A stretch of DNA of 9,833 nucleotides. It comes from a virus. Taxonomy: Duplodnaviria; Heunggongvirae; Uroviricota; Caudoviricetes. This document shows positions 3,800 to 4,110 of the stretch, in pieces. The notes under the pieces are model-generated. The model did no database searches. It worked only from the letters and a program-made list of their open reading frames with translations, and was not told the DNA's origin. Each line of letters opens with the position of its first letter. Position 1 is the stretch's first letter. The DNA lies in the IMG/VR virus record IMGVR_UViG_2711768018_000004; one strand, 5' to 3'. Both the position numbers and the translations under genes were made by a program.

Positions 3800-3876
3800 G
3801 GCCCTTTAGCTCAGTTGGTCAGAGCGAGCGACTCATAATCGCCAGGTCGCTGGTTCAAGTCCAGCAAGGGCCACCA
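3800..3876 (+). tRNA. ileZ: tRNA with anticodon CAT, most likely tRNA-Ile2 (lysidine type, ileX/ileZ-like); tRNA-Met not excluded
   Basis: Cloverleaf: acceptor GGCCCTT/AAGGGCC, anticodon loop CTCATAA, T-arm GCTGG-TTCAAGT-CCAGC, encoded CCA. Very similar to E. coli ileX as recalled. Confidence 0.85.
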
Positions 3877-3877
3877 A

Positions 3878-3954
3878 CCACCACTAGCTCATCCGGATAG
3901 AGCATCAACCTTCTAAGTTGACGGTGCGAGGTTCGAGTCCTCGGTGGTGGGCCA
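3878..3954 (+). tRNA. argN: tRNA-Arg (anticodon TCT, reads AGA)
   Basis: Acceptor CCACCAC/GTGGTGG, anticodon stem TCAAC/GTTGA with loop CTTCTAA, T-arm CGAGG-TTCGAGT-CCTCG, encoded CCA. Starts 1 nt after the previous tRNA. Confidence 0.85.
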
Positions 3955-3956
3955 GC

Positions 3957-4032
3957 GCCGACTTAGCTCAGCAGGCAGAGCAACTGACTTGTAATCAGTA
4001 GGTCACCAGTTCGATTCCGGTAGTCGGCACCA
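3957..4032 (+). tRNA. tRNA-Thr (anticodon TGT)
   Basis: Acceptor GCCGACT/AGTCGGC, anticodon stem ACTGA/TCAGT with loop CTTGTAA, T-loop TTCGATT, encoded CCA. Nearly identical to host thrU-type tRNA-Thr as recalled. Confidence 0.85.
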
Positions 4033-4035
4033 TAT

Positions 4036-4110
4036 GCGGGCATCGTATAATGGCTATTACCTCAGCCTTCCAAGCTGATGATGCGGGTTCGATTCCCGCT
4101 GCCCGCTCCA
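4036..4110 (+). tRNA. tRNA-Gly (anticodon TCC)
   Basis: Acceptor GCGGGCA/TGCCCGC, anticodon stem TCAGC/GCTGA with loop CTTCCAA, T-arm CGGGT-TCGATTC-CCGCT, encoded CCA. Matches host glyT-type tRNA-Gly as recalled. Confidence 0.85.

Follow-up and report, generated by a model that had tools for sequence, protein, structure and literature searches.

Why would a temperate phage carry four transfer RNA (tRNA) genes packed almost end to end, and why should two of them match Escherichia coli genes nearly letter for letter? This question is raised by a 9,833-nucleotide (nt) stretch of viral DNA, IMG/VR record IMGVR_UViG_2711768018_000004, referred to here at its full length as the window, and in particular by an array of tRNA genes at positions 3800 to 4110. 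We propose, with a probability of roughly 0.7, that the array is a tRNA supplement cassette of a phiP27-like lambdoid E. coli prophage, in which genes of the ileZ and argN lineages, known from Shiga toxin (Stx) phages, would have been fused to a Thr-Gly pair derived from the host.

The four tRNA genes

An earlier note, made from the letters of the window alone, had described four tRNA genes with encoded CCA ends within 311 nt and with spacers of 1-3 nt. These coordinates proved exact. ARAGORN and Rfam both recover all four as tRNAs on the plus strand, and ARAGORN finds exactly these four and no others in the window:

3800-3876, plus strand: tRNA-Ile2 of ileZ type, anticodon CAU (ARAGORN; Rfam RF00005, 70.5 bits)
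3878-3954, plus strand: tRNA-Arg of the argN lineage, anticodon UCU, with a C1-G72 pair (ARAGORN; Rfam RF00005, 56.4 bits)
3957-4032, plus strand: tRNA-Thr, anticodon UGU, a copy of thrU with T16C and T20C (ARAGORN; Rfam RF00005, 69.8 bits)
4033-4035, plus strand: junction TAT, corresponding to the first nucleotide after host thrU and the last two before host glyT
4036-4110, plus strand: tRNA-Gly, anticodon UCC, same sequence as host glyT (ARAGORN; Rfam RF00005, 64.9 bits)

The gathering score of RF00005 is 29 and the E-values of the four genes range from 1e-10 to 1e-14; the matches are therefore far beyond chance. As in tRNAs of bacterial type, each gene encodes its 3' CCA and forms a cloverleaf that scores above the gathering threshold and has an anticodon loop of 7 nt. 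Between the genes stand A (3877), GC (3955-3956) and TAT (4033-4035).

Origin of the Thr-Gly pair

The third and fourth genes had been thought near-identical to host thrU and glyT and to keep the order of the host thrU-tyrU-glyT-thrT operon without tyrU, and both points held on alignment to E. coli K-12. The Gly gene is identical to glyT (75/75), and the Thr gene matches thrU at 74/76, differing only by T16C and T20C in the D loop. By BLAST, 3957-4033 aligns to thrU and the base that follows it, and 4034-4110 to the two bases before glyT and glyT itself. Positions 3957-4110 as a block are colinear with host thrU-tyrU-glyT once 206 nt are taken out of the latter, namely an 8-nt spacer, tyrU and a 116-nt spacer. 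The near-identity of the Thr gene is not convergence, since the tRNA-Thr(UGU) that SfI/P21-type phages carry at the same genome position shares no more than 52/77 with thrU (and 51/77 with the gene in the window). A search for host flanks outside the mature tRNA ends found none longer than 2 nt: at the junction T and AT alone fit the host, and the outer flanks share 0-2 nt. On these alignments a bacterial origin of the pair is well supported. The direction of transfer, as judged from the distribution of the sequences, is from host to phage, because the operon is found in essentially every E. coli, and also in Salmonella, whereas the phage pair is sporadic.

The earlier note had gone on to suggest that host tRNA genes were captured. 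This stands as far as the bacterial origin is concerned, but the capture is an old event shared by lambdoid phages and not one of this prophage. The Thr-3 nt-Gly junction is present in at least 120 IMG/VR viral contigs, in the named phages 689R5, 606R7, PhiR47_1, phi467, JLK-2012 and (in two copies) SerU-LTIIb, and, among species representatives, in genomes of E. coli, Shigella flexneri, E. ruysiae, Citrobacter braakii and Enterobacter hormaechei. Of 112 IMG/VR pairs, 109 have TAT as the spacer; the Thr gene equals thrU in 66 of the 112 and has the C16/C20 haplotype of the window in 19, and the Gly gene equals glyT in 52. The architectures seen in IMG/VR are Thr-Gly alone (50), Ile2, a gene with a TTT anticodon, Thr and Gly (at least 33), and the Ile2-Arg(TCT)-Thr-Gly order of the window (14). 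Among complete E. coli genomes, 603 of 5,426 (~11%, about one in nine) contain a homologous array, defined as at least 80% of the 311 nt covered, and in 10 the identity is at least 99%; the Arg(UCU) allele of the window occurs in about 10.

Recent capture by this prophage from its present host, for example through aberrant excision or illegitimate recombination, would agree with the 100% and 97% identity to E. coli genes. It is nevertheless very improbable, as the same 3-nt junction and the C16/C20 haplotype recur in many other phages and genera, the module of the window is found 100% identical in another strain with different neighbours, and identity says nothing of age. The Salmonella thrU, tyrU and glyT genes are identical to those of E. 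coli and their spacers nearly so. Photobacterium sagamiensis has a native chromosomal Ser-Thr-Gly-Asn cluster (locus L022, 575-950) with an 8-nt Thr-Gly spacer and no Tyr gene between, in which Thr differs by one base and Gly is identical, that is, 1 nt in 151 against E. coli thrU plus glyT. With the Salmonella genes identical and those of Photobacterium almost so, neither a donor nor a date can be assigned to the capture, and we abandoned dating or placing it by sequence as impossible. thrU- and glyT-type tRNAs are in general unusually conserved across the Gammaproteobacteria. The whole is best explained by a single acquisition of the pair by the lambdoid gene pool, which we consider probable from these comparisons, followed by movement between phages as a mosaic module.

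The state of the host operon bears on a further explanation, in which integration breaks the thrU/glyT operon and the prophage carries the replacements. Such tRNA-dependent lysogeny is known in mycobacteriophages (PMC10865867), and the phage copies would be functionally interchangeable with the host genes. However, the host thrU-tyrU-glyT-thrT stretch is intact (coverage of at least 80% at an identity of at least 99%) in 5,421 of the 5,426 complete genomes while about 600 carry arrays, and the module is found in phages with different integration sites (SerU-LTIIb, ompW prophages). The intact operon effectively refutes this explanation, which we regard as scarcely tenable. Since the operon is intact in the carriers, the phage genes add dosage and do not replace host genes. 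In E. coli ECMA0423 (L018, L019, L024) and S. flexneri SFBU1023 (L017, L020, L021) three arrays were observed per genome, in different prophages, so that such a genome has four gene copies for Thr(UGU) and Gly(UCC) in place of one, and several dispersed exact repeats of host genes.

When IMG/VR and metagenome contigs were scanned for phage arrays retaining the host thrU-tyrU spacer, five such contigs were found, which at first sight resembled intermediates. Two from IMG/VR, both from one draft genome (L147, L148), have the host spacer and nucleotides 1-35 of tyrU inside a phage array; two from metagenomes (L152, L153) have a complete thrU-tyrU-glyT segment between phage flanks; and L151 runs from a phage array through the thrU spacer and tyrU into the tyrTV locus, an obvious repeat chimera. 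None of the 5,426 complete E. coli genomes contains a tyrU-containing array, and the same arrays without the insert, with flanks 100% identical, are common in them. We therefore rejected these contigs as evolutionary intermediates. They are best explained, from their structure, as assembly chimeras that arose by mis-threading through the exact repeats, 76 and 75 bp long, that phage and host have in common. Repeats of this length, as exact copies of essential host genes, can yield mis-joined short-read and metagenome contigs that are mistakable for intermediates.

The Ile2 and Arg genes

For the CAT gene, identity is 74/77 with ileZ of an Stx2a phage and 69/77 with ileX of K-12. It has the same anticodon arm as ileX, and its acceptor strands GGCCCTT/AAGGGCC form the C4-G69 and C5-G68 pairs, which are pairs used by TilS. 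The CAU anticodon therefore sits on an Ile2 body rather than a Met body, and an identical gene is labelled tRNA-Ile by PGAP annotation. By sequence, this gene is an ileZ-type tRNA-Ile2 that would read AUA after lysidine modification. The TCT gene is 64/77 identical to argN (whose anticodon is TCG), 46/77 to argO and 54/77 to host argU. Its anticodon loop is canonical, its T stem is paired throughout, and it has the argN-typical C1-G72 pair; in Rfam it scores 56.4 bits against 43.0 for argN. It belongs to the argN lineage, and would read AGA/AGG. The first two genes had been likened, as readers of AUA and AGA, to the ileZ-argN-argO arrays of Stx phages; the ileZ type of the first and the TCT anticodon of the second bear this out, but the second gene is of the argN lineage, not argO.

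One scaffold at the second position is found with three anticodons, UCG in Stx2 phages, UCU in the window and UUU with C33 in most relatives. In about 39 of 65 arrays examined (e.g. L004, L006, 1423-1499) the second gene combines a TTT anticodon with C33, and its T stem contains an A-C mismatch; U33 is almost universal in tRNAs. ARAGORN also calls Leu(TAA), Phe(AAA) and undefined genes at this position, which would have made its anticodon hypervariable. We discarded this notion: these are 73-74-nt genes with broken anticodon arms, best read from their structure as decay rather than anticodon switching, and intact scaffolds have only UCG, UCU or UUU.

The Thr gene varies as well. The first copy in SerU-LTIIb (L007, 1122-1197) is a thrU-derived gene in which the anticodon TGT has become TCT, called tRNA-Arg, and in two IMG/VR contigs (L097, L145) TGT has become TTT. 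The tRNA-Thr of JLK-2012 (L008, 1503-1578), for which ARAGORN gives no call, and that of 5-6 IMG/VR contigs is a chimera with its first 25 nt of SfI/P21 type and the rest of thrU type, with a compensating T68C. Its sequence indicates phage-phage recombination inside a tRNA gene.

Such alleles raise the possibility that the cassette is a counter-defence reservoir, which replaces tRNAs destroyed by host anticodon nucleases, tRNA-acetylating toxins or colicins, with the C16/C20 and anticodon-loop alleles as escape variants. In such an arms race, spare minor tRNAs would be kept and diversified (U16C and U20C in Thr; UCG, UCU and UUU with C33 at the second position), protecting induction in hosts armed with nucleases or toxins. 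Phage T5 tRNAs evade anticodon nucleases through loop changes, and PrrC cleaves 5' of the tRNA-Lys wobble base. U16C and U20C, which remove two dihydrouridine sites from the phage thrU allele, are a candidate for such diversification. The allelic series on one scaffold, with its unusual C33, and the persistence of T16C+T20C as a stable phage haplotype in 19 of 112 pairs are in keeping with this explanation. We nevertheless give it little credence, both as a reservoir and as an arms race. The Gly gene is the host gene and the Thr gene is thrU in 66 of 112 IMG/VR copies, which would be as sensitive as the host tRNAs, and the Arg allele of the window has a fully canonical anticodon loop. Moreover, no defence gene or nuclease was found linked to the cassette in this analysis, and the match to phage codons described below is explained without any defence.

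Structure and promoter conservation

Among the 112 IMG/VR pairs, the Gly gene shows two compensatory double changes, C6T+G66A in at least 46 and G48A+C64T in 3 copies. These independent changes indicate that the phage copies are kept folded and functional. Upstream of the array there is a promoter-like site:

3761-3790, plus strand: sigma-70 promoter-like site TTTGCA-18-TATTAT, with the -10 box ending 9 nt before the first tRNA gene and a start predicted 2-3 nt upstream of 3800 (promoter scan)

We compared 29 distinct 70-nt upstream sequences from 71 arrays, including those of an Stx2 phage and phiP27. Conservation of 80% or more is limited to two blocks, TTGCA and, 18 nt further on, TATTAT. 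The boxes are a promoter footprint, which suggests that the cassette forms its own transcription unit besides standing where Q-modified polymerase would pass.

Codon usage and proposed function

From the genes, their identities and distribution, the junction, the codon bias and the conservation of promoter and structure, we infer the following course of expression, processing, modification and benefit to the phage. The Thr-Gly pair would have come from the enterobacterial thrU-tyrU-glyT-thrT operon through loss of tyrU and the spacers. The cassette would be transcribed at a basal level from its own sigma-70 promoter, and its expression would increase strongly after induction by Q-dependent read-through and genome replication. 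Mature tRNAs would be released from the polycistronic precursor by RNase P, with exonucleases trimming the 1-3 nt tails. This would raise the supply of four minor tRNAs, each with 1-2 gene copies in E. coli (in K-12, thrU, glyT and argU are single-copy and ileX/ileY are a pair), and would allow better translation of AUA, AGA/AGG, ACA and GGA/GGG, which these phages use 2-3 times more than host core genes do.

The codon evidence for this proposal comes from a sample of 367 unique open reading frames (ORFs) of at least 200 amino acids, 120,574 codons in all, from IMG/VR loci with the module. When the 61 codons are ranked by enrichment over K-12, AGG is 1, ATA 2, ACA 3, AGA 6, GGG 8 and GGA 9. 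The six codons read by the four tRNAs are thus among the nine most over-used in module-carrying loci (hypergeometric P 1.5e-6). CGA, the codon read by argN of Stx phages, has rank 5.

Several points weigh against the proposal. In the genes of the window itself the four codons are over-used (ATA 3.1x, AGA 4.7x, ACA 2.9x, GGA 1.8x), but these ratios are exaggerated by the host baseline, 42 mostly housekeeping K-12 genes from one 50-kb stretch. Rare codons without a matching tRNA are equally raised (CGG 4.1x, CGA 3.1x, CCC 2.0x), and therefore the window alone shows relaxed codon bias and no specific match. The late genes of the window have ATA at just 4.2 per 1000. Copies of Thr and Gly that equal the host genes can only add dosage, and since most lambdoid prophages are without a cassette (only the one in nine complete E. 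coli genomes noted above has one), any benefit would be modest. The host origin is argued from identity, gene order and a 3-nt junction, and by our own count TAT has a chance of ~6% of fitting the host by accident (4 possible splits over 64 trinucleotides). Finally, the apparent tyrU intermediates are artefacts, although this does not account for the break at nucleotide 35 of tyrU shared by L147 and L148.

A rival explanation is that the array has no selected function and is a passenger hitch-hiking in a recombination-prone intergenic region, perhaps as patches of homology. Mosaic joints do lie at or inside tRNA genes (the module of the window at a terminator T tract, and the chimeric Thr of JLK-2012), in several arrays the second gene has decayed to 73-74 nt and its anticodon arm is broken, and most prophages do without the cassette. 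Mere hitch-hiking, on the other hand, would not be expected to preserve pairing in the Gly gene through two independent compensatory changes, nor to keep a promoter footprint amid divergent upstream DNA. It also leaves the recruitment of two unrelated tRNA-Thr(UGU) lineages to the same position, and the specific codon match of the 367-ORF sample, to coincidence. We therefore consider a passenger unlikely and prefer the tRNA supplement cassette.

Genomic setting

The window is a lambdoid prophage of mosaic structure. Among named relatives the Stx2e phage phiP27 comes closest, with 87.6% identity across 54% of the window, and coverage by any one complete E. coli genome stays below 80%. The other features are as follows:

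33-1565, plus strand: DnaB-type helicase
1819-2190, plus strand: RusA
2159-2566, plus strand: late antiterminator Q gene (Pfam PF06530, Phage_antitermQ, E = 2.7e-52)
2571-2683, plus strand: promoter-like site TTGACC-18-TATATT, then a short isrK-type RNA with its own terminator (promoter/terminator scan; Rfam isrK, 77.5 bits)
2709-2792, plus strand: C4-type antisense RNA (Rfam, 71 bits)
2926-3009, plus strand: second C4-like RNA (sRNA-Xcc1/C4-like; Rfam, 77.4 bits)
ending at 3610, plus strand: ORF6N-domain protein gene
3686-3707, plus strand: intrinsic-terminator-like hairpin, 8-bp stem with 5 GC pairs and a T run, 93 nt upstream of the array
3700-4237, plus strand: mobile mosaic module carrying the array (100% identity to a prophage of E. 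coli FDAARGOS_944)
4238-4600: masked run of N, 363 nt, hiding most of what lies between the array and the holin gene
3' of the masked run, plus strand: class II holin gene, end only
4702-5199, plus strand: lysozyme
5184-5660, plus strand: Rz
after Rz, plus strand: HNH endonuclease, small and large terminase, portal

The array therefore lies on the late strand, 3' of Q and 5' of the lysis genes; Q, lysozyme and Rz are all on the plus strand. Its description as lying downstream of Q is right in that it is in the late region 3' of Q, but it is not directly behind Q, being ~1.2 kb away. A module of ~1.1 kb with isrK- and C4-like RNAs and the ORF6N gene separates Q from the hairpin at 3686-3707. 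The isrK match in 2571-2683 overlaps a match to the c4-a1b1 target (Rfam, 50.1 bits), and this site is probably the Q-dependent late promoter with its leader, in the role of pR'/tR'. The isrK RNA and its terminator occupy the place expected of a lambdoid pR' leader and tR', and the stretch 2571-3610 as a whole, which includes a second promoter-like site, resembles immI of P1 and isrK-anrP of Gifsy-1.

In FDAARGOS_944 the upstream genes differ: the module follows a different Q-like gene (DUF1133) and an analogous hairpin. Homology begins at 3700, and the mosaic joint lies at the T tract of the hairpin at 3686-3707. The 100% identity of the module, despite the different Q-like gene in front of it, marks the cassette as a mobile mosaic unit. 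The counterpart of the masked stretch in that strain is 666 nt without an annotated gene, and when the DNA 3' of the array in its identical module was searched against Rfam, no known RNA family came up. Just before the masked part, at 4228-4237 and ~120 nt after tRNA-Gly, begins a long inverted repeat, CACCAGAATGGTGCATT ... AATGCATCATTCTGGTG, which runs on into that part. The repeat, also at L001, 6523-6617, has no Rfam match beyond weak hairpin-like ones; it might serve in processing or terminating the tRNA transcript.

No toxin gene is visible in the window, though 363 nt of it are masked. In related phages, toxin genes are neighbours of the cassette, which lies upstream of stx2e in phiP27 (L003, 5617-7196) and downstream of stx2f in the Stx2f phage phi467 (L005, 1-1654), where it is the Thr-Gly pair that follows stx. 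In the LT-IIb prophage (L007) it is duplicated around a holin fragment. If our proposal is true, the cassette often adjoins the toxin genes stx2e, stx2f and LT-II in related phages.

Relation to known systems

The closest known system is the ileZ-argN-argO cluster of Stx phages (933W/Sakai type; ileZ-argO in phiP27). Like the window array it lies between Q and the lysis or toxin genes, with orthologous ileZ (74/77) and argN (64/77) genes and the conserved TTGCA-18-TATTAT upstream. In contrast, the window array lacks argO, has UCU in place of UCG and has Thr and Gly appended. It is thus a related variant and not a member of that cluster. With the host thrU-tyrU-glyT-thrT-tufB operon it shares the Thr (74/76) and Gly (75/75) genes, their order and the junction nucleotides T and AT, but it is without tyrU, both spacers (206 nt together with tyrU), thrT and tufB, and the phage copies have polymorphisms of their own, C16/C20 in Thr and U6-A66 in Gly.

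The Asn-Thr(UGU) pair of SfI, Sf6, ST64T and P21 is likewise downstream of Q with a UGU anticodon, whereas its Thr gene is of the other lineage (51/77 to the window gene) and has no Gly partner. Its authors propose that it supplies the ACA codons over-used by the phage, and the SfI genome paper reports an ACA bias of 17.3 vs 7.1, in its own units, alongside this other Thr(UGU) lineage (PMC3636060). If our proposal is true, lambdoid phages have recruited an ACA reader on at least two occasions, from a phage lineage in one case and from the host operon in the other, which would be good evidence of selection on codon supply in temperate phages.

The tRNA loci of the Stx2f phage are mentioned in passing elsewhere (PMC5189129). 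No paper on an origin from the thrU-glyT operon was found, only passing mentions of tRNA loci, in a search that left most subscription journals outside. The tRNA loci are already annotated in public records, and the cassette is a common, fairly ordinary phage accessory of a well-known kind that will not surprise a specialist.

Two further systems work in a similar way, through tightly packed extra genes for minor tRNAs that relieve codon limitation, and fall outside this cassette family. In T4 the tRNA cluster covers all four specificities of the window array, Ile(AUA), Arg(AGA), Thr(ACA) and Gly(GGA); T4, however, is a lytic phage and its genes are ~80% identical to those of the host. The laboratory plasmids pRIG and pRARE supply argU, ileX and glyT to relieve codon limitation for AT-rich foreign genes. 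These plasmids are artificial; if our proposal is true, the cassette is a natural counterpart of such rare-codon helper plasmids, present in about one in nine sequenced E. coli.

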